From: a virus
Taxonomy: Duplodnaviria > Heunggongvirae > Uroviricota > Caudoviricetes
DNA length: 64,000 nucleotides
Direction: 5' to 3' (one strand)
Virus record (IMG/VR): IMGVR_UViG_3300042402_002792
A program made the position numbers and the translations under genes. The notes beneath the pieces were generated by a model. It was not told where the DNA came from. It did no database searches and saw only the letters and a program-made list of their open reading frames with translations. This document shows positions 496-47,163 of the stretch, in pieces. Position 1 is the first letter of the stretch, and each line of letters starts with the position of its first letter.

Positions 496-523
496 AGTTA
501 AGGATACTAACAGCAAAACCCTT

Positions 524-600
524 TTCGCCTTGTAAGCGAGTGGTAGTTGGTTCGAATCCAACATTAGGCTCCAAGCCTGATTAGCTCATTTGGTAGAGCA
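524..600 (+). tRNA. Circularly permuted or split tRNA-Thr(TGT)-like gene. The 3' half (anticodon arm through CCA, 524-573) lies directly upstream of its cognate 5' half (acceptor plus D-arm, 575-600)
   Basis: Region 524-573 reads TTCGC-CTTGTAA-GCGAG, then variable region, then T-arm GTTGG-TTCGAAT-CCAAC, then acceptor-3' ATTAGGC-T-CCA. Region 575-600 reads GCCTGAT-TA-GCTC-ATTTGGTA-GAGC-A. The acceptor strands are complementary at 7 of 7 positions with one G·U. The break falls at tRNA position 26/27. The unit is flanked by the inverted repeat AGGATAC (502-508) and GTATCCT (610-616). Confidence 0.4.
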
Positions 601-626
601 CTTTAAAATGTATCCTGTTTTTCTAT

Positions 627-3412: not shown

Positions 3413-3511
3413 GCCGCCATAGCTTAATGGTAAAGAAGCGAGCTTATACCTCGCCAAAGCACAGGCCAGATAAGCCTGAGTGTGCAGGTTCGAGTCCTGC
3501 TGGCGGCACCA
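3413..3511 (+). tRNA. Oversized (99-nt) tRNA-like gene. The candidate anticodon arm is GCGAG-CTTATAC-CTCGC (anticodon TAT) and is followed by an unusually long (~29-nt) extra arm
   Basis: Perfect acceptor GCCGCCA/TGGCGGC and T-arm GCAGG-TTCGAGT-CCTGC. CCA is encoded. The interior contains a second hairpin, CAGGC-CAGATAA-GCCTG. Identity could not be resolved by eye. Confidence 0.35.
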
Positions 3512-3792: not shown

Positions 3793-5241
3793 ATGTATAA
3801 AATTGTTGTTGTTGGTGGAGGAACAGCTGGATTAATGGCTGCATCGTTTTTAAAATCTACATATGGTCCTCACGTAGATGTAACTGTAATCTATGATCAT
3901 AAAAATCCAGGAATAGGTGTTGGAGAAAGTTTAACTCCTATAATTTATGAATACTTAACTGCTGTCGGAATTACTAGAGAAGAACTTATTTTAAATGTTA
4001 ATGCTACAGTTAAATTAGGTTTAAAATTTAAGAACTGGTTAAATGACGGCGGGTACTACTGGCATCCATTTGTGCAAAAAGACTCACCTAGAAATGATAT
4101 CGATGCCGCATTTGATCTAGCACATAACACTTATGACTCAGATAATGGCTATAGTAGTTATTTTTTAGAATCAAATCGTATACCTAAACAATCCGGTACA
4201 CAGGCATTACATATTGATTCTGTTCTTTTTGCTAGATATATAGAACACAAATTTAAAGATAGAATTAATATTGTCGATGGTATTGTAGATGAAGTAAATG
4301 TAAGCGAACACAATCATATTACTCACGTTAGATTAACAGACGGTCGAGTATTTGACGGTAACTTTTTTGTTGATGCTAGCGGGATGCAGTATGCATTATT
4401 TAAACACTTAAATGTAAAATGGGTTGACAAATCAGACTGGCTACCAATTGATCGATGTATCCCAAATCCAGTTCCGTGGACATTTACAACACAGCCTACT
4501 TATACTACATCCGAAGCTAGCAAAGACGGATGGATATTACAAGTTCCGTTGAGTAATCGTTGGGGTACTGGGTACCTTTACTCTAGTCAATTTCAACAAG
4601 ATAACCGTGCTCACGATACATTTGATCAGTTTTTAAAAAATAACTACGGCACAGAACTTACAAGCTCAAGAGTAATTAAATTTAAAAGTGGCTTTTGGGA
4701 AGATCAATGGGTTGGTAATTGTATTGCTGTAGGATTGTCAAGTGGGTTTACCGAACCGTTAGAAGCTACAAACATACACCATGTTGTTTATCAATTATGG
4801 ATGTTTACTGAAATGTTTAATTTAGAAATACTTAATTACGATAGAAAAAAATATAATAAAATGATGACCAGTTTTTATAACAATGTCTATTTGTATCTTA
4901 GATTTTGTTATACTACAGGAAGAACCGATAGTGAATTTTGGAAATACATGACAGCAAACGTTCCCGAATCAGTTCGAGACTTAGAAGAAAAAATCTCACG
5001 TAACTCAATGAATACCTACTCATTACCAGGTACTGTGTTTTCGTATCATAACTTTACAAAAGTAGCTCACGGGTTAGGAAAAATTAATAGAATGAGCTAC
5101 CTAAACGAGCTCAGATTACGAAATATGATTGAACAAGCAAGGATTAAAGCAACTAAACTCAAAATTGAAAAATTAGTTGACTATGAGACTAGCATTGATC
5201 ATTTAGAATATATAAAATCGGTCCTTAACTCAACTGGATAG
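3793..5241 (+). CDS. FAD-dependent (tryptophan-type) halogenase-like protein
   Basis: 482 aa. N-terminal GxGxxG FAD-binding fold (VVVGGGTAGLMAASF) and a W-x-W/L-x-IP-like motif (DGWILQVP), giving an overall flavin-halogenase architecture. The 3' end overlaps the next tRNA. Confidence 0.55.
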   Translation: MYKIVVVGGGTAGLMAASFLKSTYGPHVDVTVIYDHKNPGIGVGESLTPIIYEYLTAVGITREELILNVNATVKLGLKFKNWLNDGGYYWHPFVQKDSPRNDIDAAFDLAHNTYDSDNGYSSYFLESNRIPKQSGTQALHIDSVLFARYIEHKFKDRINIVDGIVDEVNVSEHNHITHVRLTDGRVFDGNFFVDASGMQYALFKHLNVKWVDKSDWLPIDRCIPNPVPWTFTTQPTYTTSEASKDGWILQVPLSNRWGTGYLYSSQFQQDNRAHDTFDQFLKNNYGTELTSSRVIKFKSGFWEDQWVGNCIAVGLSSGFTEPLEATNIHHVVYQLWMFTEMFNLEILNYDRKKYNKMMTSFYNNVYLYLRFCYTTGRTDSEFWKYMTANVPESVRDLEEKISRNSMNTYSLPGTVFSYHNFTKVAHGLGKINRMSYLNELRLRNMIEQARIKATKLKIEKLVDYETSIDHLEYIKSVLNSTG

Positions 5242-8524: not shown

Positions 8525-8599
8525 GCCGGATTAGCTCAGTGGTAGAGCAACCGCCTTGTAAGCGGTAGGTCGTCAGTTCAATCCCGACATCCGGCACCA
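8525..8599 (+). tRNA. tRNA-Thr (anticodon TGT)
   Basis: Perfect acceptor GCCGGAT/ATCCGGC. D-arm GCTC-AGTGGTA-GAGC. Anticodon stem ACCGC/GCGGT with loop CTTGTAA. T-loop TTCAATC. CCA is encoded. Confidence 0.65.
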
Positions 8600-10041: not shown

Positions 10042-10242
10042 ATGAAAACGCAAGTTAAAACAAGACCCGTTCGCCTACGTAATATTCGGAATAATCAAGA
10101 AGTTATCTGCGATGATTATACCAATGTTCGGACTATCGACGGGCAGGACTTCGTTGAAGTCCATTTTGAAAATCAAACTCGTAAATTTTGGCTTAACAAA
10201 GCACCCTTACAAAAGGTAAAAGAGAAGTCCAAAAAGAGTTGA
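10042..10242 (+). CDS. Small basic hypothetical protein of 66 aa
   Basis: AGGAG ribosome-binding site 7 nt upstream of the ATG. Lys/Arg-rich. Confidence 0.5.
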   Translation: MKTQVKTRPVRLRNIRNNQEVICDDYTNVRTIDGQDFVEVHFENQTRKFWLNKAPLQKVKEKSKKS

Positions 10243-10268
10243 CAAAGATTAAGATCTATACTATAATA
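10240..10268 (+). promoter_or_regulatory. Perfect sigma70 consensus promoter TTGACA-N17-TATAAT driving a ~500-nt non-coding leader or RNA upstream of the TROVE-like gene
   Basis: TTGACA at 10240-10245, 17-nt spacer, TATAAT at 10263-10268. Confidence 0.55.
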
Positions 10269-10274
10269 GACACA

Positions 10275-10781
10275 TAGCAAGCAGAAATGCTTGTAGAGAG
10301 TTTTAGGATCGGTACAGCAACATTCATATTACTATGGATCGTTGGACCCTATGGTAGTCAGCTGGAGTTGAAAGGTTCGCCTGGAGACTGTGAAGGTTGC
10401 TATTGAAATAGACCAACAAGCACAGAGTGATGGCCTGTGTAAAATAAAAGCAGTCAACAACGATCCTGTTAGTTTTGGATGACTACAGCAATTTAAATCA
10501 ATCGAACTAAAGCTATAGAAGGTGGCCGCGGGGCACAGTAGAAATACTGTTTTAGAAATAGACGCTCAAGGAATAGCTAGGCCGGCAAAGCCCGGATATG
10601 ATTTACATACAGAAAAATATGTAATAGGCAACATGAATGTTGCTAGGGTCTGAGTGCCGTAATTGGTCAGACCAGAAAATAAACAAATTGGCACGATCAT
10701 CCTGTTAAAGTTTTAGAATGTTAACAGCAACTTTAAATTTTCAAGCATATCGAAAAAAAATACATTCTGTGAGGTAATAAA
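10275..10781 (+). ncRNA. Candidate ~500-nt structured non-coding RNA, possibly Y-RNA-like given its Ro60/TROVE-like neighbour, or a long structured 5' UTR
   Basis: No open reading frame of 60 aa or more on the plus strand across ~500 nt downstream of a consensus promoter. Multiple hairpins (CAAGCA-GAAA-TGCTTG, GGTCTGA..TCAGACC, GCAACAT..ATGTTGC). A T-loop-like GGTTCGCC. Two copies of the ATCCTGTTA..TAACAGCAA hairpin motif. Confidence 0.3.
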
Positions 10782-12191
10782 ATGAACGCATTTGTAAACG
10801 CAATCGCAAATCAAGAAGCCCGTACCGCAAACGGTATGAAGGCACGTAAGTCAACAGCTAAGGCTACCGTTGACCTGTTCTACAACATCGGTGCAAGCCG
10901 TGGTAAGGACATCACAGGCGACTTCACAGCCGCTTATGTGGAAAACGCAGACGTAGCATTACGCATCGCACAATGGGCACGTGATGTCCGAGGTGGTGCA
11001 GGTGAACGTCAACTGTTCCGTGATATTCTAGTTCATCTAGAAAAGCGTGACCCAGACGCCGCTTTGGCTCTTCTAAAGAAGATTCCAGAAGTTGGACGTT
11101 GGGATGACATCTTTGTCTTCACCAACCCTGTTCTGAAGTCAGCCGCTTATACCATGTTGGGCGATGCCCTTCGTGCTAATAACGGTCTGGCTGCAAAGTG
11201 GACCCCCCGTAAGGGTCAAATTGCCGCTGAGATTCGTGCCTTCTTTGGCATGACTCCGAAGCAATATCGTAAGAGCCTTGTTGCTCTTACCAAGGTGGTT
11301 GAAACCCAGATGTGTGCTAACGACTGGGATAACATCAACTTTAGCCATGTTCCTTCTGTGGCTGCTCGCAACTACAAGAAGGCATTCAACCGTCACACTC
11401 CTCTGTTCGCAGAGTATGTGGCCAAGTTGGTGGCAGGGGATAAGACTGTTAAGGTTAACGCCAGCGCAATCTTCCCACATGATGTCCTAAAGGGCATCGC
11501 ACACAGCTACACTAAGCTGAACAAGACAGAAACCGACCATGTGATTGCACAATGGGACGCTCTGCCTAACTATGTAGGTGACGCAAGTATCCTACCTCTA
11601 GTTGACGTTTCTGGTTCGATGACAACATCTGTTCCAGGTTCAACTGTTCGCTGTTTAGATGTAGCAGTCGGTCTAGGCTTGTATCTTGCAGATAAGAACA
11701 AGGGTGTGTTCAAGGACACGTTCTTGACTTTCTCAAGCAAGCCACAACTGGCTACTCTAAAGGGTAACATTGTTGCAAAGGTTGACCAAATGTCAAGTAG
11801 CAACTGGGAAATGAGCACTAACTTGCATGCCGCTATGGACAAGATCCTAAGCGTTGCAGTTAAGGGTTCAGTACCGGCTAGTGACATGCCAAAGATGTTA
11901 CTCATCTTGAGTGACATGCAGTTTAACCAATGTGCTCGTTTCGACGACTCAGCAATGCAAATGATTGAACGAAAGTTCGCAGATGCAGGTTACACTGTTC
12001 CGCAAATTGTTTTCTGGAACCTAAACAGTTCTGGCAACGTGCCTGTAAAGGCAGACAAGAGTGGCGCGGCACTGGTAAGTGGTTTTAGTCCAAGCATCAT
12101 GACAGCTCTGTTGTCAGCGGATATGGACCAATTCACTCCAGAAGGTATCATGATGAAGACTGTAATGGTTCCTCGTTATGACCTTAACTAA
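10782..12191 (+). CDS. Ro60/TROVE-like or DUF2828-like protein with a C-terminal vWA (MIDAS) domain
   Basis: 469 aa. MIDAS motif DxSxS (LVDVSGSMTT) within a vWA-like C-terminal half, and a helical N-terminal half. Noticeably GC-richer than its neighbours. AGGTAAT ribosome-binding site. Confidence 0.5.
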   Translation: MNAFVNAIANQEARTANGMKARKSTAKATVDLFYNIGASRGKDITGDFTAAYVENADVALRIAQWARDVRGGAGERQLFRDILVHLEKRDPDAALALLKKIPEVGRWDDIFVFTNPVLKSAAYTMLGDALRANNGLAAKWTPRKGQIAAEIRAFFGMTPKQYRKSLVALTKVVETQMCANDWDNINFSHVPSVAARNYKKAFNRHTPLFAEYVAKLVAGDKTVKVNASAIFPHDVLKGIAHSYTKLNKTETDHVIAQWDALPNYVGDASILPLVDVSGSMTTSVPGSTVRCLDVAVGLGLYLADKNKGVFKDTFLTFSSKPQLATLKGNIVAKVDQMSSSNWEMSTNLHAAMDKILSVAVKGSVPASDMPKMLLILSDMQFNQCARFDDSAMQMIERKFADAGYTVPQIVFWNLNSSGNVPVKADKSGAALVSGFSPSIMTALLSADMDQFTPEGIMMKTVMVPRYDLN

Positions 12192-12210
12192 AAAGTATTA
12201 ACTTTTGAAA

Positions 12211-12236
12211 TAGCACCTTCGGGTGCTATTTTTTTA
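12211..12236 (+). terminator. Rho-independent terminator
   Basis: Hairpin TAGCACC-TTCG-GGTGCTA followed by T7. Confidence 0.6.
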
Positions 12237-12466: not shown

Positions 12467-12958
12467 ATGCCGTGGATTGAAAATGTAAGTTTGGGAGATA
12501 TCCCAAAAGGTCGGCATCACCTTGCTGGCGAGAATAGTATGCTAATTCAGATTGTTGATCCCGGCATGGAGTTTCCTCACCCTATGCACAAGTTCAAAGA
12601 GACACATCGATTTCAGTTTCTGGACCTTGAGGTAGGTGATGCATTTGGTGAAGAATTTAAAGTCACCGATGCTCAGGCGGACCTACTTGTCAGACTATTA
12701 CAACATGCATTGGACAAAAGAATGAATGTAGTTGTTCACTGTGTTGCAGGAGTGTGCCGGTCGGGTGCGGTCTGTGAGGTTGGTGTAATGATAGGCTTTA
12801 ATGATACTGAAGTTTTTCGTAGTCCTAACTTAATGGTCAAGCATAAGATGATGAAAGTTTTAGGTTGGACTTATGATGAAAACGAAGCGCACACTATTAA
12901 TGGTGTAATTTTAGATTCTGGGCTTATTGTGCCTAAGAACTACGAAGGTGATATTTAA
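12467..12958 (+). CDS. Dual-specificity (Cys-based, CX5R) phosphatase
   Basis: VVVHCVAGVCRSGAV matches the VHCxAGxxRSG DSP/PTP P-loop signature. 163 aa. Confidence 0.65.
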   Translation: MPWIENVSLGDIPKGRHHLAGENSMLIQIVDPGMEFPHPMHKFKETHRFQFLDLEVGDAFGEEFKVTDAQADLLVRLLQHALDKRMNVVVHCVAGVCRSGAVCEVGVMIGFNDTEVFRSPNLMVKHKMMKVLGWTYDENEAHTINGVILDSGLIVPKNYEGDI

Positions 12959-12973
12959 AGAAAGGAGGGCAAG

Positions 12974-13579
12974 ATGCCTAGTGTATTTTTAGTTAGCGAC
13001 ACGCATTTCGGACATACCGGCGTCTGTCGCTTCACACGTAACGATGGTGTTACAAAGTTACGCCCATGGGATAGTCCTGAAGAAATGGACGAAGCTATGA
13101 TCAAGGCGTGGAACGAGCGAGTTAAACCCACTGACAAGGTCTACCACTTGGGCGATGTTGTCATCAACCGTAAGGCCATGTCAACGTTAGCTCGTTTAAA
13201 CGGCGACAAGGTTTTAATCCGCGGCAACCACGACATCTTCCGTGACGACGAGTACAGACAGTACTTTAGAGAATTACGTGCATACCATGTTATGAACGGA
13301 ATGATCTTAAGTCACATTCCTGTACATAGTGATAGCTTAGGACGTTTTGGAGTTAACATTCACGGACACTTACACGCAAACCGCGTTAAGAAGGCCCGTG
13401 GTGTTGATGCACGTACAGGAGAGATCTTATACAGCGATGAGAACGATGTTCGTTACCATTGTGTCTGCGTAGAGCAAACACCTAACTTTGCTCCTATATT
13501 GTTTGAAGAAGTAATTGCACGGATTGAAGCAGAAGGTGGCACAGTTGGTTTTAAAAACGGCAACGGCCCTACAATGTAA
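12974..13579 (+). CDS. Calcineurin-like metallophosphoesterase
   Basis: Motifs DTHFGH, GDVV, GNHD and GHLH. AAGGAGG ribosome-binding site. Confidence 0.65.
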   Translation: MPSVFLVSDTHFGHTGVCRFTRNDGVTKLRPWDSPEEMDEAMIKAWNERVKPTDKVYHLGDVVINRKAMSTLARLNGDKVLIRGNHDIFRDDEYRQYFRELRAYHVMNGMILSHIPVHSDSLGRFGVNIHGHLHANRVKKARGVDARTGEILYSDENDVRYHCVCVEQTPNFAPILFEEVIARIEAEGGTVGFKNGNGPTM

Positions 13580-13683
13580 AGAAAAAGAATGTCTTATCGT
13601 AAATATTATTTTAAACAAATGATTAGGACCGTTAAGGCATTCTTACTGTATACCAAAGGGTTTGTTTTAAATAGGAAAATATA

Positions 13684-14145
13684 ATGTCAAAATGTTATCA
13701 GTTAATCGGAGTACCGGCAAGCGGAAAAAGTACCTGGGCCGAAGCTCAAGACTGGGCGCATCTTTGTGCCCACATTAGCACAGACAAATGGGTAGAAATC
13801 TTTGCTAAAGAGATTGGCAGTACTTATAGTCAAGTGTTTACAGACTTTATGCCTACTGCTGTAGAACTTATGGCTAAAGAAGTTGTTGTTGCTCGAGACA
13901 TGGGACGAGATATTATTTGGGACCAAACTAGCACTACTGTAAAAAGTCGTACTAAGAAATTTGCTATGTTGCCAGATTATTATCATATTGCTGTGGTATT
14001 TAAAATACCCGAGCATAAAGAACTTTACCGCAGACTACTTAGCCGGCCAGGCAAGGATATTCCAGATCATGTTATTGCCAGCATGATTGCTAATTTCGAA
14101 ATGCCTACAGAAGAAGAAGGATTTAAAGAAATATGGTACGTATAA
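13684..14145 (+). CDS. Polynucleotide 5'-kinase, matching the T4 Pnk/PseT N-terminal kinase domain only
   Basis: Walker A GVPASGKSTWAEA compared with T4 Pnk GCPGSGKSTWAREF. IIWDQTSTT compared with T4 IISDTNLN. 153 aa, about the kinase-domain length. No HAD phosphatase domain is present. Confidence 0.6.
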   Translation: MSKCYQLIGVPASGKSTWAEAQDWAHLCAHISTDKWVEIFAKEIGSTYSQVFTDFMPTAVELMAKEVVVARDMGRDIIWDQTSTTVKSRTKKFAMLPDYYHIAVVFKIPEHKELYRRLLSRPGKDIPDHVIASMIANFEMPTEEEGFKEIWYV

Positions 14146-17129: not shown

Positions 17130-18614
17130 ATGAAGAAAAATATACATGCATTGCTTATTGGAAGTATTGATTTTGATTTAGTATCTCGGCCTATAGGATT
17201 ATTTAGACTTAGAACTGCTGCTGAAGATCAAGGATTTGATGTTGAGGTAATTGACTATAGTTGGTGTATTAGCGAAAATGAAATGTTAGCCATATGTGAT
17301 CACTGTATAGGAGACAATACATTAGTCTTTGGAATTAGCGGTGTCTGGTGGTCATTTTTAGGTCTAGACGCAGGTACAAAAAAACATTCATGGGCGTGTG
17401 AAAGTTTTTTTAATACATTTAAGAAAAAATATCCGCATGTAAAAATAGTACTAGGGTCGCCGCCAACTGGAATGAATATACCTCGAGTGTTAAAAGATAA
17501 TTCTGATTGGGTTTTTAGCGGATTTTCTGATCAAAGTTTTCCAGAACTGCTTAAAAAACTATCTGGACAAGATTCTACTTTAAAATATTTTAAAGAAAAT
17601 AATCATTATGTAGTTAATAGTAATAGAGATCATATAACGCACGACATGTCAACAATACAGACAAAATGGAAAAAATCTGATGGGTGGACTGAACATCAAC
17701 CTATCCCATTAGAGTTAAGTAGAGGTTGTATTTTTAAATGCGCTTTTTGTAACCATCCATTTCTTGGAAAAAAGTCTTTTGACTATATTAGATCGTCAGA
17801 AAGCATTGCAGACGAATTATCACAAAATTATGAGTTGTTCGGGACTACTAGATACCTATTACTTGATGACACTATGAATGATAGTTTAGAAAAGTTAGAC
17901 CGATTAGACAAGGCTATTGAATTATCTAAAATTCCAAATTTTGAATTCTGTGCCTATATTAAACCAGAAACAATCGTTGCTAACCCTAGCATGATTGAAA
18001 AATTAAAACATCTAGGGTTAAGAGGCGGCTTTGTCGGTATCGAAAGTTTTAATATGCCAGCTAGAAAGATCATAGGAAAAGGGATGGATATTGACAAAGT
18101 TAACGACGTGTGTGCTAAACTAGTATCTCAAAGTAACGCAAAACTTTTTTGTAGTTTAATTTTAGGTCTACCTGGTGATAAATTAGAAGATGCTGATAAA
18201 TGGTTAGACTTTCTAAAAGCAAATAAAAACGATCTTTATTCTTGCTGGAATATGCATCCTTTAGGAATTATGGGAGAGGTTGGAGAGAATGGCGCAAGTT
18301 TAATCGAAAAAAATCCAGAAAAATTTGGATACACATTACTAGGATTTAATCCATCTCAAAATATATGGAATTGGAAGAATGAGAATATGTCTAATATCTC
18401 AGCCAGTCTTAAAGCCAATCAGTTTAGACATAACAGTGCAGGGTATGTAACTGCCGGAGGGTGGGCTGTTGGTAGTCACTGGTATATAGGATCCAGTGAC
18501 GATGTCATTGATAATCAAGAGTTAAAATTAGATAGGCTTGCTAAAGCTACTTCTGCTATTAGTGTTGACCGTAAAAAACAGATTTTGCAATTTTTAAATT
18601 ATTTTGAAAAATAA
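17130..18614 (+). CDS. B12-binding-domain radical SAM enzyme
   Basis: 494 aa. CxxxCxxC (RGCIFKCAFCNH) following an N-terminal Rossmann-like, B12-binding-type region. Confidence 0.55.
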   Translation: MKKNIHALLIGSIDFDLVSRPIGLFRLRTAAEDQGFDVEVIDYSWCISENEMLAICDHCIGDNTLVFGISGVWWSFLGLDAGTKKHSWACESFFNTFKKKYPHVKIVLGSPPTGMNIPRVLKDNSDWVFSGFSDQSFPELLKKLSGQDSTLKYFKENNHYVVNSNRDHITHDMSTIQTKWKKSDGWTEHQPIPLELSRGCIFKCAFCNHPFLGKKSFDYIRSSESIADELSQNYELFGTTRYLLLDDTMNDSLEKLDRLDKAIELSKIPNFEFCAYIKPETIVANPSMIEKLKHLGLRGGFVGIESFNMPARKIIGKGMDIDKVNDVCAKLVSQSNAKLFCSLILGLPGDKLEDADKWLDFLKANKNDLYSCWNMHPLGIMGEVGENGASLIEKNPEKFGYTLLGFNPSQNIWNWKNENMSNISASLKANQFRHNSAGYVTAGGWAVGSHWYIGSSDDVIDNQELKLDRLAKATSAISVDRKKQILQFLNYFEK

Positions 18615-25210: not shown

Positions 25211-25836
25211 TATATGTTATTTTTTTCTATTACAAATTTATTATATTTGTTATAAGACATTTCTATAAGATTTAAAAATTTATTATAATTGTTAATTTTT
25301 CCTCTAATAATTCCTAAAACTTTTTTTCCGTTTGGGACAGTTGCACCGTGTTTGCAACTATAATTATTAAAAGCAAACACGTTTGCATCGGGTGGTAAAT
25401 CTATATACTTAGAACGATTTTCATACTTAATAAAAAATGAAGGGTCTTCTTGTATTAGTACAAATCTAAATCTAAAATCCGTTTCTTGGTCGTACACTTT
25501 TTGATCCATATGTGCAGGAACAGCTATTTTATTACACCACAGACTTATAGTTTCAACTTCTATAGGAAGATATTCATTTAATATGTTAATTTCTTCAATT
25601 AACAACTCTTTAATATCTAAGAACTTTCCAGGATATAAGATTTTCGATTCATCAACATCTTCTTTTTTATAGCACAACATTCCTTCCCAGAATTCGGGAA
25701 TTTTGCTATCACTAGGCTTGCTTATTGATTCTTTGTGCGTTAAAAAAATATCTAAGATTTTATCTTTATATCTAAAAGGCAAGTAAGGAATAGCCAACGG
25801 CAAAAAAAATACATCATTAACATTTAAATTAGACAT
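25210..25836 (-). CDS. 2OG-Fe(II) oxygenase-like protein (Asp/Asn beta-hydroxylase-like pattern)
   Basis: Motifs AHMD ... KHGATVP. AGGAG ribosome-binding site upstream. Confidence 0.35.
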   Translation of the reverse strand: MSNLNVNDVFFLPLAIPYLPFRYKDKILDIFLTHKESISKPSDSKIPEFWEGMLCYKKEDVDESKILYPGKFLDIKELLIEEINILNEYLPIEVETISLWCNKIAVPAHMDQKVYDQETDFRFRFVLIQEDPSFFIKYENRSKYIDLPPDANVFAFNNYSCKHGATVPNGKKVLGIIRGKINNYNKFLNLIEMSYNKYNKFVIEKNNI

Positions 25837-25912
25837 TGCTCCTATTTATAAAAGTTTAATTTGGTTATTGTTAGCTACGATTTTTACTAGTAAAATTTGA
25901 AGATATAAGTAC

Positions 25913-25941
25913 TTGACTAAAGAAAAACAATTGTGTATAAT
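25913..25941 (+). promoter_or_regulatory. Perfect sigma70 consensus promoter TTGACT-N17-TATAAT, with an ATG 6 nt downstream (leaderless)
   Basis: TTGACT at 25913-25918, 17-nt spacer, TATAAT at 25936-25941, ATG at 25948. Confidence 0.5.
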
Positions 25942-25947
25942 AATAAA

Positions 25948-26499
25948 ATGACTAAGATTTCAAAAAGCCTCCAACGGAATACATTTCAAAAGAAAAATTA
26001 CCTTGAGCGACAAGCTGAGAAAGGTAAAACTCCGGAAAACGACGAAGACACTCGTGCTATGCAAGAGTACTATGAATCTTGGGATGCCAACGAAGAGCAA
26101 AAAGAAGCAGATCCAAAATGGTACGAATACAATCTCGAAGCAGACTTACGTACTACCGATTGGATTTTGGAGAAAGTTAGAGCAGACGAACTCTATGCTC
26201 AAAACTTGTATGCGGCAATGTGTAACAATGATTTCATCAAACGTGAAATGTGGCCTATTCTCAAAGACCAAAAATGGTCATGTTCATGGCGCTACGCTGG
26301 TGGAATTGTTGCTCACATGCGTCAAGAAGGCGACTACATCGACTGGTATTGTAGCGGTATTCGAAATGACTACGATGATGAGAAAGAAAACAAACTAGCA
26401 GGCGGTCGTAACTATGCGCCCGAAAGTGTAGTTACTGAAGAAATTGAAAATGACCTGTATAAATTAGGCTGGTTAGTAGTAAAGGATAACAATGAATAG
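25948..26499 (+). CDS. Acidic hypothetical protein
   Basis: The ORF track starts at GTG 25933 inside the -10 element. The first ATG at 25948 is preferred. 183 aa. Confidence 0.45.
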   Translation: MTKISKSLQRNTFQKKNYLERQAEKGKTPENDEDTRAMQEYYESWDANEEQKEADPKWYEYNLEADLRTTDWILEKVRADELYAQNLYAAMCNNDFIKREMWPILKDQKWSCSWRYAGGIVAHMRQEGDYIDWYCSGIRNDYDDEKENKLAGGRNYAPESVVTEEIENDLYKLGWLVVKDNNE

Positions 26500-39940: not shown

Positions 39941-40642
39941 ATGAGAATTTGTATACTTGCATCTCCAAGAACCGGTAGCCAGCATTTAGCTGAGATTATA
40001 AGAAGATCATATCCTAATATGACAGACTGCCTAGAGCCGTTTACTGATAGTGATTTCCTAAGAGATATAGAATTAAAAAATAATCAAATTATTCTATCAA
40101 CAAATAAAAAATATAAATCTGTTAGACAGCGTGTTGAAACTGTTTGTAATTTCATTGATAAGTCCGATTCAAATCAAAATTTAGTATTAAGATTATTTTT
40201 ATTAGATTATATAGAATCTTTTTTACCCCAAATTGTTTACTTTCTTAAAAAAAATAATTTTAAATTTTTAGTTCTAAAAAGAGACTTGTCGGAACAATTA
40301 TTAAGTTGGGCTATTGCAAGAACCACAGACAAATATAATACCGTTACTAAAGGTTATGATATTGGGCAGAAATTTAAAGTTACAGACTTTCACAGTGTTC
40401 AATGGTTGTTTAATCAACAAAAAGAATTTGATAGAAGATTAAGTGCCTTAGATATCGAATACAAAACTATCCATTATACTACATTATATCAAGACTTAGA
40501 ACAGTTATTGAATATTCAAGTTAATCAAACTAGTCTCACTCTTAAAAAACAAGTTGTAGGTAACCATTACGATTATATAGAAAATGCAGAGCAAGTAAAA
40601 GAAATTATAGAGAATATTACAAATGGAACAAAAATATATTAA
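39941..40642 (+). CDS. Sulfotransferase-family (Stf0-like) protein
   Basis: 233 aa. N-terminal PAPS-binding-like P-loop (ILASPRTGSQHL). A TATAAATA late-promoter-like motif sits at about 39921. Confidence 0.4.
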   Translation: MRICILASPRTGSQHLAEIIRRSYPNMTDCLEPFTDSDFLRDIELKNNQIILSTNKKYKSVRQRVETVCNFIDKSDSNQNLVLRLFLLDYIESFLPQIVYFLKKNNFKFLVLKRDLSEQLLSWAIARTTDKYNTVTKGYDIGQKFKVTDFHSVQWLFNQQKEFDRRLSALDIEYKTIHYTTLYQDLEQLLNIQVNQTSLTLKKQVVGNHYDYIENAEQVKEIIENITNGTKIY

Positions 40643-41573
40643 ATTAGTACATTCAAATCCCGACCACGAAAACTGGTTTGTAGTCAACTGGTGTTTGGGT
40701 AATACTTGCAATTTTGAGTGTAGTTATTGCCCAGCTGCACTACACGACGGATCAAAACGTTGGCCAGATCCTCAAGTAATTAAAAATTTTATTGCTCGTG
40801 TTAAAGATCATTTTTTTCATAAAAATATCTATTTTGAATTTACAGGTGGCGAAGTTACCATGTACAAGCACTTTACTGAAATTTGTCAATTTTGTGCAGA
40901 CATGGGAATCAAAGTAGGATTGATCAGCAACGGTTCTCGAACTATTCGATACTGGGAAGAAAACAAACAGTTCTTTGATCACGTATGTCTAAGCTTCCAC
41001 CCGGAGTTTGCTGATGAAAAACATTTTGTTGAGGTAGTTAAGACCTTGCACAAAGATGTAAGAACTCATGTTAACATTATGATGAGTCCAGAAAAGTTTG
41101 ACTATTGCTATGCTGTAGCTAACAAAGTTAAAAACTTAGGAAATATAAGCATGGCCTTACAGCCGTTAATTCACGACTTTGGTGACACACTTTATAATTA
41201 CAGCGAATTCCAAAAAAAGATCTTTGATAAACAGCACGAACTAATTACCAAACATATTAAGTTTGATCAGTCGTTTGATTATTATAGAGGTGCTATGAAG
41301 ATGGTCAATGAAGAAGGACAATCGATGATTTCTAGCGCACATAGATTTATCAGTGATAAAACTAATGACTGGTCCAACTGGAATTGCTACGCTGGTGTAG
41401 AACAGCTGATAGTTGATATGGACGGATCAATCTATCGAGGATGGTGCAAGATGGGAGGAGCAATAGGCAATATTGCCGATCATGTGTTTGATTTACCAAC
41501 TGAACCTATTCAATGTCAAAAAACAATGTGCCATTGTAATTTTGATATTATGTGTACTAAAGAAAAAATTTAA
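40623..41573 (+). CDS. Radical SAM enzyme (family A) with a C-terminal Cys-rich, SPASM-like tail
   Basis: CxxxCxxC (CNFECSYC). C-terminal block AGVEQLIVDMDGSIYRGWCKMGGAIGN...CQKTMCHCNFDIMC, shared with the gene at 46080-47135. Confidence 0.6.
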   Translation: MEQKYIKLVHSNPDHENWFVVNWCLGNTCNFECSYCPAALHDGSKRWPDPQVIKNFIARVKDHFFHKNIYFEFTGGEVTMYKHFTEICQFCADMGIKVGLISNGSRTIRYWEENKQFFDHVCLSFHPEFADEKHFVEVVKTLHKDVRTHVNIMMSPEKFDYCYAVANKVKNLGNISMALQPLIHDFGDTLYNYSEFQKKIFDKQHELITKHIKFDQSFDYYRGAMKMVNEEGQSMISSAHRFISDKTNDWSNWNCYAGVEQLIVDMDGSIYRGWCKMGGAIGNIADHVFDLPTEPIQCQKTMCHCNFDIMCTKEKI

Positions 41574-42391
41574 AAAAAGGCAACATTCATTGCATCAACA
41601 TCTTTTTGAGTCTTATAAAGATGTGTTGCAAATTTTGTAACATCCCAGGATGCAATAGATTGAGTTGTTATTATATTAGCTAACTGATCGCTTAGTATGT
41701 TTCGATTAATTTTACTAATATGATTTACTCTATAGTCTAACCCTGGAGTCTTTGCATTTGAAGATAGCATATATTGGTGTAAAGACGAACTGCTAAATTC
41801 ATTACTGCTAATATCTGCTAGTGTATCAGTTTCATTTAGTATAGGAAAAAAGTTATCAGTAGCAGTTACTAACTTGTTTAATTGACTAATCTTTTTTCCT
41901 TCTTCTGGAGAACGAAAACATTTTAAAACAATCACTTTGTTTGTTATATTATGCTGACTCCACACTTTTAAAAACGATGCTAATTTTAAAATATTGTAAT
42001 TAAGAGAAGGATGTAATACTTCTTCCATAGCCCATAATGCATGATCTTTATTTTCTTTAATCCATTGTTGTTCTCGGCGGCTTCTTAAATCTACTACATC
42101 TAATAAATTATAGAAAATACCTAGACTAGGATCCGGCATATTCCATGCATATAATCTTTGCTCGTTAGTTAATGCAAAAACAAATATGTCTTCTTTGTCG
42201 TATTCTTCGTTTATCAAATATTGATGAAATCTCATCATGGTAAAATTTAAACCACTGCCAGATACAGCATGATTAATTGAAGGTACATTTAACTTTTGTC
42301 CTAAATATGTAGACCAGTGTAATGGACTAACTTCTTTTAGTACCCAGTCATAACCGGCAAAACTGTCTCCAAATACAACTACTTTCTTCAT
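41570..42391 (-). CDS. SGNH/GDSL-like hydrolase family protein (paralog 1)
   Basis: N-terminal MKKVVVFGDSFAGY (GDSx block I). Paralogous to the gene at 42388-43197. Confidence 0.4.
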   Translation of the reverse strand: MKKVVVFGDSFAGYDWVLKEVSPLHWSTYLGQKLNVPSINHAVSGSGLNFTMMRFHQYLINEEYDKEDIFVFALTNEQRLYAWNMPDPSLGIFYNLLDVVDLRSRREQQWIKENKDHALWAMEEVLHPSLNYNILKLASFLKVWSQHNITNKVIVLKCFRSPEEGKKISQLNKLVTATDNFFPILNETDTLADISSNEFSSSSLHQYMLSSNAKTPGLDYRVNHISKINRNILSDQLANIITTQSIASWDVTKFATHLYKTQKDVDAMNVAFF

Positions 42392-43197
42392 AAAGGGCCT
42401 CGTGTATTACTCAATCTTACAACTTCATCTTTAGTATTATAAATGTTTTTAATAAAATGATTAGAATCGAATCCGTTAGTGCTGTTATTTTTAAATATTT
42501 CATAAACTAGTCTAACTAAAATTTCTCTGTTTACTTTTGAAAAATGATTCATTCTAGGATCATTGCCGCCGATACATTGAGCAAACATTTCGTAACTAGC
42601 AAATTCATCTATGGATAATTTATACAATGAATTTTCTTTTTCTAATATAGGAAAAAAATTACTATTAGGTTTTATTATCTCATTGAGAGATTCGATGTGT
42701 TGATCAAAATATATACCAAATACACGCATAACCAGTAACTTGTTAGTTAAATGAGAGTCGGCCCAAACTTTTAAAGTAGCAAACGTCTGTACTAACTCAA
42801 AATTTAACCCTTGATTAGCACAACTCATTTGATACCACTCAAAACTCTTTATATTATTTTTAAGCCATCTCTTTTCATGTCTAGTATAAAAAGGATTATG
42901 CAGAGCACCAGGTGCTACACCTAGACTAGGATGTGGCATGGTTTTTGTGTAAGATCTCGAAACTGGGTCACTTGTTAAAAATATAATGTAATCTTCAGAA
43001 TCGTATTCTTCAGACAAATAGTATTCAAAAAACATATGTAACGAATAAGATAAACTACTACCCGCTATACCATACATAAGTAAAGGTAAATTGAGCTTGT
43101 TGGCTAATTCAGTAGTCCAGGAGCAGGTAATATCACCTGCTTCTACACCCTTAGAATAATTAGCAAAGCTATCACCAAATACTACTAGCTTCTTCAT
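42388..43197 (-). CDS. SGNH/GDSL-like hydrolase family protein (paralog 2)
   Basis: N-terminal MKKLVVFGDSFANY. Start/stop overlap with neighbours. Confidence 0.4.
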   Translation of the reverse strand: MKKLVVFGDSFANYSKGVEAGDITCSWTTELANKLNLPLLMYGIAGSSLSYSLHMFFEYYLSEEYDSEDYIIFLTSDPVSRSYTKTMPHPSLGVAPGALHNPFYTRHEKRWLKNNIKSFEWYQMSCANQGLNFELVQTFATLKVWADSHLTNKLLVMRVFGIYFDQHIESLNEIIKPNSNFFPILEKENSLYKLSIDEFASYEMFAQCIGGNDPRMNHFSKVNREILVRLVYEIFKNNSTNGFDSNHFIKNIYNTKDEVVRLSNTRGPL

Positions 43198-44711
43198 CTT
43201 AGACCGTGTTCTTTATAATATTCTTCACAGAGGTAATAAAATTCAAACATTTCAGGAAATATTTCTAAAAAGTCTTTACCACGACGCTCTTTAATTTTAT
43301 TTACAAAGTCGTAGAAATATGCTCTGCTATCTAAATCAAAAGGTGTACGTTCAGGAATAGCCATTGACTTTGCTTCATGCGAAAGGAAATAAGAAGAATA
43401 TTCTGTCCATGATCCAGAATGTTTAGCTCTTATACCTCTAGCTCGCATAGCCCTAATATCAGTGTCATTTTTAAATGAATGATCTAAAATAAACTGGTTG
43501 GTAATTTCAAAATACTTTGCATACTCTGCTGGCAATATGTGAGGATTGTGATGTCTAGGGAACGACACAAGATTAGGATATAAACCTAAATTAAACCCGT
43601 GTGTATCAATTTTCTTCTGTACCCAGTAGGCAAAATCAGGCATAGTAGTGATACTGAAAGTATTAATAGCTGCTTGGAATCCCATGCTAAAATTATCAGG
43701 ATTAAGACCAAACTTGTCTCTGTTTCCTAGAATATAATCAATGTTTCTTTCAAATCGTTCCCATGACAAGTTCTGTCTAATATACTCTGCTCTAACGCCT
43801 ACTGATTCCATACTAGGCTGTAATCTTACATATAGATGCTTAGTTAGTCTAGGTAGGAATCCTAAAAATCGATCTAACAAATCTGCTCTAGTATTCATAT
43901 TAGATAATATACCTAGTTCAACGTGTCGATCACGTTTGCCTAAATCTTCATAAGCATTGATTAATTTTTCCATCACTTCGTAAAATTTTGGCATGTATGT
44001 AGGTTCGCCACCTAGTATGTTAATATTACGGGTTGAGTGTCTTCCTACATCGTAGAACCACTCCCAGAATACTTTCTCAAGTTTTTCTGGTGCAGCAGGG
44101 AATTGTTTTTCAACATCTTCTTTATTAAGCTCACCGTATTTTAACAGTTCGGAAACCCATTGACTACTGTAGTGTACAGAACAATAGGTACATTTTAAAT
44201 CACAAGTATTACCTAAAATTATTTCTAACATGTCAACTTTGTCAGACATTAATAAAGGATGTCCATAATGAAGTTCATCTGCTGTCTGAGGAACGTTATC
44301 TAAATGAAATTGATATACATCATTAACTATGTTCGGATGCAGTTTTTTATCTTCAATTAAAACCTCGTTAACAAATCGTTTTAAACCAGTTCTCGGAGGA
44401 TTAGTTTTATTAGCTTCTAATCTAAGACAAGATTCACAATCAACATGAGTTATACCTAGCAATTTTTCTTTTCTACGATCTTGCTCATACGGCAAATTTT
44501 GTATGGCATTGATACCATGCAACTCTATGTCTTGTTCAGTGATTACCTGTTTAGGTGTTCTACAGCAGTTGCGAATATGGCCACTTTGTAGATTAACAAT
44601 AGGATAATTCCATTTAAAGGCACAAGCAACGTTATCTATTTCTAATTTCTGACCAAAGTGGATTACCTGTTCGACAACAGCCTTTGGAGGCGTACTCTGA
44701 TTATCATACAT
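43194..44711 (-). CDS. Radical SAM enzyme (family B) with an N-terminal Cys-rich domain
   Basis: 505 aa. CDLKCTYCSVHYSSQW core. N-terminal NCCRT...CESC motif shared with the genes at 44704-46083 and 47164-48426. Confidence 0.6.
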   Translation of the reverse strand: MYDNQSTPPKAVVEQVIHFGQKLEIDNVACAFKWNYPIVNLQSGHIRNCCRTPKQVITEQDIELHGINAIQNLPYEQDRRKEKLLGITHVDCESCLRLEANKTNPPRTGLKRFVNEVLIEDKKLHPNIVNDVYQFHLDNVPQTADELHYGHPLLMSDKVDMLEIILGNTCDLKCTYCSVHYSSQWVSELLKYGELNKEDVEKQFPAAPEKLEKVFWEWFYDVGRHSTRNINILGGEPTYMPKFYEVMEKLINAYEDLGKRDRHVELGILSNMNTRADLLDRFLGFLPRLTKHLYVRLQPSMESVGVRAEYIRQNLSWERFERNIDYILGNRDKFGLNPDNFSMGFQAAINTFSITTMPDFAYWVQKKIDTHGFNLGLYPNLVSFPRHHNPHILPAEYAKYFEITNQFILDHSFKNDTDIRAMRARGIRAKHSGSWTEYSSYFLSHEAKSMAIPERTPFDLDSRAYFYDFVNKIKERRGKDFLEIFPEMFEFYYLCEEYYKEHGLR

Positions 44712-46083
44712 ATGTTAGTTCTTTTAATTTTGCAAATTCAGGGAATGTCTTATACCATGTGGTTCCTCGACGTTGGTCAAGTTTGTCAAAGAACGCAACA
44801 AAATTTTTCCCCCAGGTTGGATTATTAACCATATTTAAATTTTGTTCTATACTAAGGTCTTTAACCTTTTGTAGGCTACGTATAAAATATTGTATGCTTT
44901 TTATTTGCCACTCGTCTATACTCACTACTTGAAATAATCTAAGTGATGTTAAGCAATCATCAATATGAGGGATAACTTCTAAAGGAATAAAATCTAGATT
45001 AAATTCTTTTGGCCAATCTACAGATGCCCAGTTTAGTTTGATCGGTTTCTTATATTTTAAGAAAATCTCTCTAACAAAGTCAATATAATTCTTCATCGAA
45101 GGGATAGTTACTAACTGAACTGCTGGCAAAAACTGAACTTCAATATGACTGCAAGTCATGTATTTTTCTACATTTTCTTTCCACTGAGCCCACTCAGTAC
45201 CAAATCTTACATATTCTAATTGTTCTTCGGTATTTTCTCCGCTTATCTGCACATGTATGTTAAAATATTTTGATAATTTTTTTGAATATTCTAAAAACCT
45301 ATCTAGCAAATGTGATGGTGTATTACCGTTAGTAACGATTGATAAGCCTTTTTTATCTATTGTTGTTTGATCTAATATTAAAGACATGCGATCGCCTATC
45401 TCTAGCATCTTGTCTAAGTATCTAAAAAAGTCTTTAATTATTAGTGGCTCACCACCAATAAAGTTTACATGGGGCAATGTAGGCCAGGCTTCTTCAAAAT
45501 ATTCCCAAAACGTTTTTACAAGTGGAGAATCAAAATCGTTTTCCCAGGTTAGGTAAACATCTTCTCCGTATTTTCTTTTTTCAGCAGCCCATAAACTACT
45601 AAAGTAATCTGAACAATATATACACTTTGAATCACAGGTATTGCCTAATACAATTTCTAGTACTCGAGTATTTTTACTAGTATAAAATGTGTCCCAGGGA
45701 GCATTATCAGCATTTATATCAGATCCGTCTGGTGGAACATTAGGGTGACTTTTTCTTAGTTCATAAAGCATAGCATGTGATGTCCTTTTACTTTGAAGGC
45801 CTTTGTCTTCTAGTTTCCAACACACACCACAGTCTCCAGGTCGTTTACCAGCAAGCATATCTTTTCTACGCTGTACAACATGACGAGGATTCCAAAACAA
45901 ATTTGTACCTTGATCTGCTACTTCTTCGTCAGTAACTTCTAAAGGAGCTGTTCTACAACAATAATTTACAGCATTACGTTGAGGAAAAAATTGTACATAA
46001 TTCCATGCCTGGTCACACATTGTGTCAGTTCTTGCATAGATTTGATTGTCTTGCTCTTGTTTAATATTAATTGTTTTTGTCAT
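44704..46083 (-). CDS. Radical SAM enzyme (family B)
   Basis: 459 aa. CDSKCIYCSDYFSSLW core. N-terminal YCCRT...CGVCW motif. Confidence 0.6.
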   Translation of the reverse strand: MTKTINIKQEQDNQIYARTDTMCDQAWNYVQFFPQRNAVNYCCRTAPLEVTDEEVADQGTNLFWNPRHVVQRRKDMLAGKRPGDCGVCWKLEDKGLQSKRTSHAMLYELRKSHPNVPPDGSDINADNAPWDTFYTSKNTRVLEIVLGNTCDSKCIYCSDYFSSLWAAEKRKYGEDVYLTWENDFDSPLVKTFWEYFEEAWPTLPHVNFIGGEPLIIKDFFRYLDKMLEIGDRMSLILDQTTIDKKGLSIVTNGNTPSHLLDRFLEYSKKLSKYFNIHVQISGENTEEQLEYVRFGTEWAQWKENVEKYMTCSHIEVQFLPAVQLVTIPSMKNYIDFVREIFLKYKKPIKLNWASVDWPKEFNLDFIPLEVIPHIDDCLTSLRLFQVVSIDEWQIKSIQYFIRSLQKVKDLSIEQNLNMVNNPTWGKNFVAFFDKLDQRRGTTWYKTFPEFAKLKELTYV

Positions 46084-47135: not shown

Positions 47136-47163
47136 AGTAGATTATTTATTGCTATATATTAAC

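Follow-up and report, generated by a model that had tools for sequence, protein, structure and literature searches.

A phage tRNA cluster encodes a conserved permuted tRNA-like RNA that is probably the partner of a Ro60-like protein

In the permuted tRNA genes of Cyanidioschyzon merolae and of some other algae and archaea, a bulge-helix-bulge is cut by the splicing endonuclease and the product is ligated to give a decoding tRNA. In the YrlA RNAs of bacteria and mycobacteriophages, a Ro60-binding helix formed by both RNA ends is combined with a mimic of the T arm, the acceptor and the D arm, and the genes lie beside those of Ro60; YrlA of Mycobacterium smegmatis has a 7-bp acceptor and is cleaved by RNase P, after which CCA is added (PMC4201824). 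In Thermus phage phiLo, experiments have shown that the phiRo60 protein binds the phage Yrl1 and Yrl2 RNAs and recruits the host PNPase (PMC12135203). A third kind of small RNA, Class I of Dictyostelium, is 42-65 nt long, with a 5′ G, a short covarying stem, a motif containing ACAGCAA after the 5′ strand of that stem and a C-UGU end (PMC7919456). Here we describe E2, an element at positions 501-618 (+ strand) of a 64,000-nt stretch, hereafter the window, of the tailed phage record IMGVR_UViG_3300042402_002792; the metagenomic contig is ~364 kb long, which points to a jumbo phage. E2 is a conserved structured RNA, neither a decoding tRNA gene nor a decaying duplication. We consider it likely that E2 mimics a tRNA in the manner of a Y RNA of the YrlA type, with a Ro60-like protein encoded in the same window as its partner, and that it belongs to a widespread, phage-restricted family.

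Anatomy of E2 and of its RNA family

E2 fills the gap between a tRNA-Val gene ending at 495 and a tRNA-His gene starting at 628. A first-pass annotation, made from the letters alone, had read this gap as a circularly permuted tRNA-Thr(TGT)-like gene, and all the tRNA-like elements that it named are present in 496-627. E2 as delimited here is supported by covariance model R1, by homologues and by covariation, and it is a complete gene of ~115 nt for an RNA made of a handle and a tRNA mimic. The 5′ strand of the terminal stem, AGGATAC, lies at 501-507, one nucleotide before the place first assigned to it (502-508), and pairs with GTATCCT at 610-616, where the annotation had put it. Two nucleotides past the 5′ strand stands the single-stranded handle motif ACAGCAA (510-516), and between the 7-bp terminal helix and the body lie an 18-nt 5′ linker (508-525) and a 7-nt 3′ linker (603-609).

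The body begins with an anticodon-like hairpin of 3 bp (CGC/GCG) and a 7-nt loop, CTTGTAA (526-538), whose pairs covary; as read in the sequence, TTCGC (524-528) and GCGAG (536-540) enclose the loop at 529-535. Positions 539-540 correspond to tRNA positions 42-43 and pair with 601-602 (positions 28 and 27), completing a nicked anticodon stem. They are followed by the variable loop TGGTA (541-545), the T arm GTTGG-TTCGAAT-CCAAC (546-562) and a 7-bp acceptor stem, ATTAGGC/GCCTGAT, closed by the loop TCCAA at 570-574 (stem and loop together 563-581). The acceptor 3′ strand thus occupies 563-569 and continues into T570, CCA at 571-573 and A574, and the 5′ strand occupies 575-581 and continues into TA. 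That the two acceptor halves are mutually complementary was confirmed, with 7/7 pairs, one of them G-U. The D arm, GCTC-ATTTGGTA-GAGC (584-599), is supported by sequence and covariation and is followed by A600 at tRNA position 26 (584-600 in all). The last segment (601-618) comprises C601 and T602 (tRNA positions 27-28), the A-rich 3′ linker, the 3′ strand of the terminal stem and the GU of a UGU tail.

Where is the tRNA interrupted? The annotation had placed the break at tRNA position 26. Covariation moves it to after position 28: the pairs C601-G540 and T602-A539 (tRNA 27-43 and 28-42) are formed in 20/20 homologues, with 6 and 5 double changes respectively. The alternative pairs T524-G540 and T525-A539 are mismatched in 3/20 homologues and show little covariation. 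Since the 27-43 and 28-42 pairs are conserved and covary and the outer pairs of the hairpin do not, the anticodon stem is best read as nicked, with positions 27-28 supplied by the 3′ segment, positions 29-31 by the 5′ segment, and the handle leaving at the nick. The continuous 5-bp anticodon hairpin drawn by the annotation and by RNAfold was rejected in favour of this nicked stem, because its outer pairs hardly covary. Positions 26 and 44 also co-vary, as in real tRNAs (U44/A26 in E2, A44/G26 in loci L039, L085 and L104), and across the family positions 32, 33, 37 and 38 of the anticodon-like loop are conserved as C, U, A and A, with positions 34-36 variable.

Homologues were sought in IMG/VR with a pattern joining the handle to the T loop, GGATNNNNACAGCAAN{20,45}GGTTCRANTCC, which matches in at least 120 loci. 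The parsed members have a uniform layout: the handle opens and closes the RNA, and between its two strands an anticodon-like hairpin and a variable loop are followed by the T arm, a closed acceptor of 7 bp and the D arm. In a MAFFT alignment of 20 sequences, from which R1 was made, 96-97% of the pair cells were paired and 16-17/28 pairs showed double changes, with far lower values in shuffled and slid controls. The model then retrieved 84 homologues at E<1e-10 from 100 sources (IMG/VR loci), of which 75 were distinct sequences. Among these 75, 97.3% of the pair cells are paired, compared with 65% after shuffling and ~40% when the partners are slid, the pairing percentages being inflated by the fitting of the homologue alignment (A4) to the model structure, which to that extent counts against our reading. 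Double compensatory changes occur in 25/28 pairs, in 602 cells. Terminal helix 1 is 99.8% paired, with double changes in 6/7 pairs; the helix of the T arm is 99.5% paired, and the acceptor 97.9% paired with double changes in 7/7 pairs. R1, which was built from the homologues, gives E2 itself 129.5 bits, a score that puts the arrangement far beyond chance, and we take the arrangement to be under selection. Sequence identity among homologues drops well under 60%, so they are not recent copies of one sequence.

Relatives preserve the location as well as the fold. In L099 the order is tRNA-Ile, E1 (a short RNA with the same handle, described below), tRNA-Gln, tRNA-Val, E2, tRNA-His and tRNA-Phe. 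According to the annotation, a normal contiguous tRNA at this site in relatives would speak against a permuted gene, and in L099 the genes are instead arranged as they are here, the permuted element included. Its E2 carries the loop CTTATAA and the closing loop TTCAA, that is, neither TGT nor CCA, both of which are peculiar to the copy in the window. L008 shares with E2 an identical acceptor stem and has CTTGAAA, on a hairpin with compensatory changes. When members are un-permuted in silico, 51 of the 62 parsed are called tRNA, with at least 17 different anticodons. The sequence of the acceptor closing loop is not conserved across the family: it is 3-37 nt long and starts with NCCA in 7/62 members (expected, ~1.6%), which is an enrichment but far from conservation, other loops being TTCAT, GAAA and ATC. 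Some subtypes (e.g. L041, L055) have no 7-nt loop, their anticodon stem being closed in the manner of YrlA. A strict pattern across the acceptor loop TCCAA matched mostly ordinary adjacent tRNA pairs and one true homologue (L008), so tandem tRNAs can mimic part of the signal.

In bacterial and archaeal genomes the family pattern gave 52 matches in 596 Gb, ~7 of them convincing and located on contigs of metagenome-assembled genomes that are possibly phage, and the family is essentially viral. The phage that carries E2 has no close sequenced relative among deposited phage genomes: megablast with the E2 region (250-900) found no match among them. A search for relatives of the E2 neighbourhood with the open reading frame (ORF) at 1359-2096 returned 3 loci only, two of them through tRNA overlap.

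How does E2 compare with YrlA? The Rfam YrlA model (RF02553) matches 538-605 with 33.4 bits (E = 3e-4 over 11 kb, E = 1.2e-5 in a local search), and the match covers model positions 23-87 only, that is, the tRNA-like core of stem, T arm, closed acceptor and D arm. Both RNAs have a helix of the two ends and a permuted tRNA-like domain with variable loop, T arm, looped acceptor, D arm and the 27-43/28-42 pairs, and the 7-bp acceptor of M. smegmatis YrlA matches that of E2. YrlA differs in carrying GNCGAAN0-1G where the handle has ACAGCAA, and in its partner, a TROVE protein rather than a DUF2828/DUF7788 protein. E2 also has a complete anticodon hairpin, its loop 7 nt long; the mimicry described for YrlA is limited to the D arm, T arm and acceptor (PMC4201824). 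Finally, E2 lies inside a tRNA cluster and 10 kb from the candidate partner gene, unlike YrlA.

The handle, its sibling RNAs and the Ro60-like protein gene

The handle is not private to E2. It is common to five RNAs of the window (E1-E5) and to hundreds of RNAs in other phages, and in E1-E5 the 5′ strand of a 6-bp stem is followed, after 2 nt, by ACAGCAA; a variable insert and an A-rich stretch then lead to the complementary strand and TGT. Compensatory changes distinguish the five stems: GGATGC (E1), GGATAC (E2), GGATCG (E3), GGATGA (E4) and GAATGT (E5). The bracketing helix that had been noticed around the tRNA halves is real and conserved, but it is not a private device that juxtaposes tRNA ends for ligation, since it belongs to a handle shared with four RNAs that are not tRNA-like.

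E1 (276-333, + strand; 33.8 bits with R1) is a short handle RNA between tRNA-Ile and tRNA-Gln, with stem GGATGC/GCATCC, motif TAACAGCAA and the hairpin TTTTC-TTATGGT-GAAAA. Its flanks repeat the frame of E2 (AGTTTA-GGATGC-TAACAGCAAA ... GCATCC-TGTTTT) around this small hairpin only, and its orthologue, L099:572-625, occupies the same syntenic slot of the tRNA cluster. The other three are grouped 10 kb away on the same strand. A sigma-70-type consensus promoter, TTGACA-17-TATAAT with 12/12 matches (10239-10267, +), precedes E3 (10305-10469, +; stem GGATCG/CGATCC, motif GTACAGCAA), which has an insert of ~150 nt and is found at the same position in relatives. E4 follows (10476-10705, +; stem GGATGA/TCATCC, motif CTACAGCAA), with an insert of ~210 nt and conservation in relatives, and then E5 (10715-10770, +; stem GAATGT/ACATTC, motif TAACAGCAA; 29.8 bits with R1), again a short element. 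Four nucleotides separate the end of E5 from GAGG, the ribosome-binding site of the Ro-like gene, and in the eight relatives for which both coordinates are at hand an E5-type element lies just upstream of the start codon, 12-18 nt away. Many short handle RNAs of other phages (48-65 nt) consist of a single hairpin with the 7-nt loop CTTNTAA, an isolated look-alike of an anticodon loop; examples are L044:826-884, L099:1165-1222, L048:3324-3382 and L021:1205-1260.

A resemblance to Dictyostelium Class I RNAs is seen at the level of the handle. In both, a conserved 5′ G, a terminal stem, the motif, a variable middle that is often one hairpin and a C-UGU 3′ end are found; E1-E5 all show G(G/A)ATnn, 2 nt, ACAGCAA, nnAT(C/T)C and TGT. 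The Rfam Class I model (RF01414) gives E1 25.1 bits, and in 65 kb of other phage loci it matches 11 short handle RNAs with 23.6-31.4 bits. Each match spans the entire model, and each remains below the gathering score of 41.5 bits. Their number is far above what chance should produce for one family among 4227. No Rfam family is matched by the handle above its threshold. Handle RNAs matched in this way include L086:3598-3659, L018:2747-2865, L056:1129-1362, L099:572-625, L058:3160-3222 and L048:3324-3384. There are also differences: the stem and ACAGCAA are 2 nt apart in the phages and 3 nt apart in Dictyostelium, where the known direct binder is a protein with an RNA recognition motif (CIBP/Rnp1A) and no tRNA-like cargo is known, and Class I RNAs are reported to be restricted to dictyostelids, unlike the phage handle RNAs. 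The likeness may reflect homology or convergence.

The Ro-like gene (10782-12191, +) encodes a protein of 469 amino acids, assigned to PHROG 850 ('RNA-binding protein'), in which a Pfam scan finds DUF2828 and DUF7788 only and no match to TROVE. An intrinsic-terminator-like hairpin follows it (12207-12232, +), so that the order in the window is promoter, E3, E4, E5, Ro-like gene and terminator. A search of NCBIfam with the protein gave no match, and phmmer and hmmsearch, by sequence and by profile, reached none of the Ro60 chains in the Protein Data Bank (PDB). The link to Ro60 thus comes from fold comparison only. In the AlphaFold2 model (pLDDT 72.5, pTM 0.75), N-terminal helical repeats are followed by an alpha/beta von Willebrand factor A (vWA) domain. 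The five best Foldseek matches in the PDB are all Ro60/Rsr (1yvp_A with E 3.7e-6, 9nfa_A, 2nvo, 9nf8_A and 9nen, with E to 2e-4), aligned over the full length with probability 1.00 and TM 0.40-0.53. The modelled product therefore has a Ro60-like fold, HEAT repeats plus vWA, that can be superposed on Ro60. HHpred analysis of the Listeria phage cka15 orthologue, CKA15_055, also indicates Rsr, and the authors suspected Y RNAs upstream of its gene without identifying them (PMC12282133).

By tblastn the DUF2828 / PHROG 850 protein is present in 706/50,697 deposited phage genomes. Carriers include Felix O1-like coliphages, Listeria phages of the A511/P100 type, KVP40-like phages and phages of Campylobacter, Vibrio, Bacillus, Staphylococcus and Enterococcus, as well as Mycobacterium phages of 68-77 kb, several of whose records annotate a 'Ro-like RNA binding protein'.

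The linkage between handle RNAs and this gene was seen from both sides. Among 72 loci found by RNA pattern alone, 24 have a DUF2828 gene in the sequence retrieved. RNA and gene always share a strand; the gene lies downstream in 21 of these loci, and in 11 the distance between the two is 24-800 nt. Of the loci with 8 kb or more of downstream sequence, 8/12 carry the gene. In the window, E3-E5 adjoin it. Relatives keep the order E3, E4, E5 upstream of the Ro-like gene, and in L098 an E2 orthologue, E3, E4, E5 and the gene are contiguous. Conversely, loci retrieved by protein similarity alone also have the ACAGCAA motif beside DUF2828 genes. In Listeria cka15 three handle RNAs behind a TTGACA/TATCAT promoter lie 75-340 nt upstream of the gene, in an unannotated stretch (L133:4664-4926; ~25290-25552 of OR088597.1). 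In Escherichia coli phage VpaE1 three handle RNAs, one of them tRNA-like, stand among tRNAs just downstream of the gene, at ~25656-26434 of NC_027337.1. Mycobacterium phage Crossroads has three RNAs just downstream, at ~42060-42330 of NC_022071.1, one of them tRNA-like, and retains TAACAGCAA in a GC-rich genome. Campylobacter phage F355 has two handle RNAs upstream of the gene, Synechococcus phage BUCT-ZZ01 has one upstream and one tRNA-like RNA just downstream, and Stenotrophomonas phage DLP_6 has a leader element with the variant motif ACAGCAC.

In this respect the window resembles YrlA loci, where the RNA genes are on the same strand as a Ro60-type gene and often form several paralogues per locus (YrlA, YrlB). 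It resembles phiLo as well, in which a phage Ro60-fold protein is also preceded, immediately upstream and on the same strand, by at least 2 small structured RNAs; phiLo differs in that its protein is a canonical Ro60 homologue and its RNAs carry a CGAA motif, no tRNA-like domain or ACAGCAA being reported.

Some neighbours of these genes deserve mention. Directly downstream of the Ro-like gene, at 12467-14145, a gene for a PTP/DSP-like phosphatase is accompanied by those for a metallophosphoesterase and for a P-loop protein of the AAA_33 (polynucleotide-kinase-like) type, a possible set for RNA end healing. The annotation's remark that the phage encodes enzymes for end healing as well as a ligase holds in part: the window does have metallophosphoesterases, a PTP-like phosphatase and an AAA_33 kinase, but the sole ligase found has ATP-dependent DNA ligase domains, and no RNA ligase was detected among the 30 window ORFs scanned. 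RtcB and an RNA ligase are encoded downstream of the gene in Listeria cka15, and kinase, metallophosphoesterase, RtcB and RNA ligase neighbours occur across DLP_6, Crossroads and Listeria cka15. The same Listeria phage offers two further observations. Mass spectrometry of purified virions revealed CKA15_055 (L133:5001-6521), its DUF2828 Ro-like protein, with 57% sequence coverage (PMC12282133), so it may be packaged and injected, possibly with its RNAs. The CKA15_059-061 region is reported to account for up to 67% of phage transcripts (PMC12282133). This region (L133:3424-3830) lies 1.2 kb upstream of the Ro-like gene, behind a strong promoter of its own; it is without the ACAGCAA handle, and its abundant RNA is different from the handle RNAs.

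Proposed function and rival explanations

How could E2 and the Ro-like protein work together? By analogy with Y RNAs, we infer that the handle (terminal helix, ACAGCAA, A-rich linker and UGU tail) is the putative binding site of the Ro60-like protein encoded at 10782-12191. The cargo of E2 is a complete tRNA mimic, with the handle leaving the L-shaped body at the nick of the anticodon stem. E2 would be transcribed within the tRNA cluster and presumably freed by the enzymes that process the flanking tRNA-Val and tRNA-His. Its tRNA-shaped module might then tether the Ro-like ring to factors that recognise the tRNA shape, or gate access to the ring. A likely role would be the surveillance or repair of tRNA and other RNA during infection, a setting suggested by the phosphatase and kinase genes after the Ro-like gene here and by RtcB and the RNA ligase in cka15. 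In addition, that E5-type elements end just before the ribosome-binding site in many relatives suggests that the Ro-like protein regulates its own translation through this leader.

Several points weigh against a Y-RNA-like partnership. The YrlA score of E2, 33.4 bits, compares with a gathering score of 69 bits, and relatives reach 24-42 bits. The Ro60-binding motif GNCGAAN0-1G is absent, inspection of 501-525 finding no CGAA outside the T loop. E2 lies 10.2 kb from the Ro-like gene, on the same strand, beyond the 4 kb typical of YrlA. The protein falls outside Pfam TROVE, its likeness to Ro60 being taken from a model of medium confidence (pLDDT 72.5, TM 0.4-0.53). Despite these points, the reading of E2 as a YrlA-like partner of the Ro-like protein is the one we favour.

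A broader form of this reading can be proposed only tentatively. The handle might be a universal ligand of DUF2828-type Ro60-like proteins with exchangeable cargoes, which would range from mimics of an entire tRNA or of an anticodon loop alone to larger domains and to the leader of the mRNA for the protein itself, and Dictyostelium Class I RNAs might be eukaryotic members that pair with a DUF2828 protein. If the Class I resemblance is homology, an abundant Dictyostelium RNA class would gain a candidate partner.

It is improbable, in our view, that the Ro-like protein is dispensable, or only a stabiliser, and that E2 acts as a stand-alone tRNA-shaped decoy or substrate that diverts anticodon nucleases, toxins or modification enzymes, or as a two-piece mimic cut by RNase P and ended by CCA. 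What makes the idea attractive is the loop, in which C32, U33, A37 and A38 are conserved and the triplet changes rapidly even among close relatives, together with the many short handle RNAs that bear only the anticodon-loop-like hairpin CTTNTAA. The conserved 7-bp acceptor is moreover the feature that permits RNase P cleavage of M. smegmatis YrlA and the subsequent addition of CCA (PMC4201824), and NCCA is enriched at the start of the closing loop; in this copy, RNase P cleavage at 574/575 might conceivably expose U73-CCA after loss of one A. Nevertheless, a decoy leaves the conserved handle and its strict same-strand linkage to DUF2828 genes unexplained, the variability of the triplet could be neutral, and no nuclease target has been identified.

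Could E2 still be a functional permuted tRNA-Thr gene, as first proposed? The terminal helix would then join positions 28 and 29, the handle would be excised and the ends ligated, and RNase P and a 3′ nuclease would open the acceptor loop to give tRNA-Thr(UGU). The permuted order itself was borne out, because ARAGORN calls a 76-nt tRNA-Thr(tgt) when 575-600 is joined before 524-573; in the native order E2 receives no call. The re-joined molecule has G1-C72, C2-G71, G35, U36 and an encoded U73-CCA, which we take to be tRNA-Thr identity elements, and of the members whose hairpin is intact, 29/29 are likewise called tRNA after un-permutation. Like known permuted tRNA genes, E2 has its 3′ part upstream of its 5′ part on the same strand, a helix that joins the ends and an un-permuted form that passes a tRNA detector; the excess of NCCA-start loops (7/62 against ~1.6% expected) and the nearby kinase and phosphatase genes would also suit this explanation.

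We nonetheless regard such a gene as very unlikely. The same acceptor stem occurs with TAT in the syntenic copy of L099 and with TGA in L008, and the identity elements do not change to match the at least 17 anticodons of the family. CCA is missing from L099 (TTCAA) and from most members, and some subtypes have no anticodon loop. At the termini of E2 there is no bulge-helix-bulge and there are no 3-nt bulges; unlike permuted tRNA genes, E2 has a plain 7-bp helix and a single-stranded conserved motif, its anticodon is not conserved and its CCA is mostly absent in the family. The same type of helix also carries non-tRNA inserts (E1, E3, E4, E5), which is not the case in permuted tRNA genes, and ACAGCAA is conserved, as would not be expected of a discardable intron. 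No RNA ligase is seen among the ORFs scanned, and the phage already has an intact tRNA-Thr(tgt), confirmed at 8525-8599.

A dead remnant of a tandem tRNA-Thr duplication with deletions, in which the first copy kept its 3′ part and the second its 5′ part, without function, would yield complementary acceptor strands automatically and could draw on the weak YrlA-like matches of adjacent tRNA genes (e.g. 386-444 at 19.3 bits) and on the 13/13 identity of the E2 anticodon arm with the tRNA-Thr at 8552, but its probability is close to nil, since the arrangement recurs across highly diverse phages, with 75 or more distinct sequences, is syntenic in relatives, is embedded in a handle common to other RNAs and shows strong double compensatory changes in every arm, which also exclude the frozen intermediate suggested at first.

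The partnership of E2-type RNAs with the Ro-like protein would matter for several reasons. DUF2828 / PHROG 850, an orphan protein common in phages whose partner and function are undescribed, gains a candidate RNA partner, and the concept of Y RNA would come to include another protein family with another recognition motif. Phage tRNA clusters could also be annotated better, because their unannotated gaps can contain genes for RNAs and need not be junk or pseudo-tRNAs. One handle with many cargoes and a fast-changing triplet suggest an RNA-based system that engages tRNA-recognising enzymes during infection, and its presence in phages of E. coli, Listeria and M. smegmatis makes it tractable. Neither the RNA family nor its ACAGCAA handle nor the association with DUF2828 proteins appears to have been described, none of them being present in Rfam 15 or in the literature searched. 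The titles and abstracts of papers on DUF2828 contain nothing relevant, and the literature on permuted tRNA and phage, and on TROVE, Y RNA or Ro-like proteins and phage RNAs, offers no description of the family. Unrecognised members may be present in a bulk catalogue of ~10,000 viral candidate RNAs (PMC10690425).

Further observations on the window and on related loci

The first 10 kb of the window form a phage tRNA cluster in which ARAGORN finds 25 tRNAs, all on the + strand. At 3413-3508 the Rfam tRNA model matches 96 nt with 59.5 bits; this tRNA, with a long variable arm and the loop CTTATAC (triplet TAT), is missed by ARAGORN at default settings, and when introns are allowed the program forces a tRNA-Ala(cgc) with a 4-nt intron. 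Two gaps in the cluster, 865-1019 and 1173-1265, have stable predicted folds (-46.9 and -32.0 kcal/mol) and possibly encode additional small RNAs, although neither contains the handle or matches Rfam. Between 1359 and 9620 the tRNA genes are interleaved with ~8 paralogous genes of the 2OG-Fe(II) oxygenase, JmjC or DUF6445 type, and a gene for a tryptophan-halogenase-like flavoprotein lies within the cluster at 3793-5241. This companionship of oxygenases and a halogenase with tRNAs is unusual and might be concerned with RNA or protein modification.

Three loci that carry handle RNAs contain other known structured RNAs. A tmRNA gene is found by Rfam at L053:6948-7355 (permuted tmRNA model, 97.4 bits; beta-tmRNA model, 95.4 bits) and another by ARAGORN at L061:307-783, and L018 has a Hatchet ribozyme (1620-1705, 68.6 bits) ~1 kb from four handle RNAs. 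Elsewhere in the window, 40623-48426 hold a cluster of six radical SAM genes, of which one has a SPASM domain, and another radical SAM gene, at 17130-18614, lies beside fatty-acid-desaturase-like genes.

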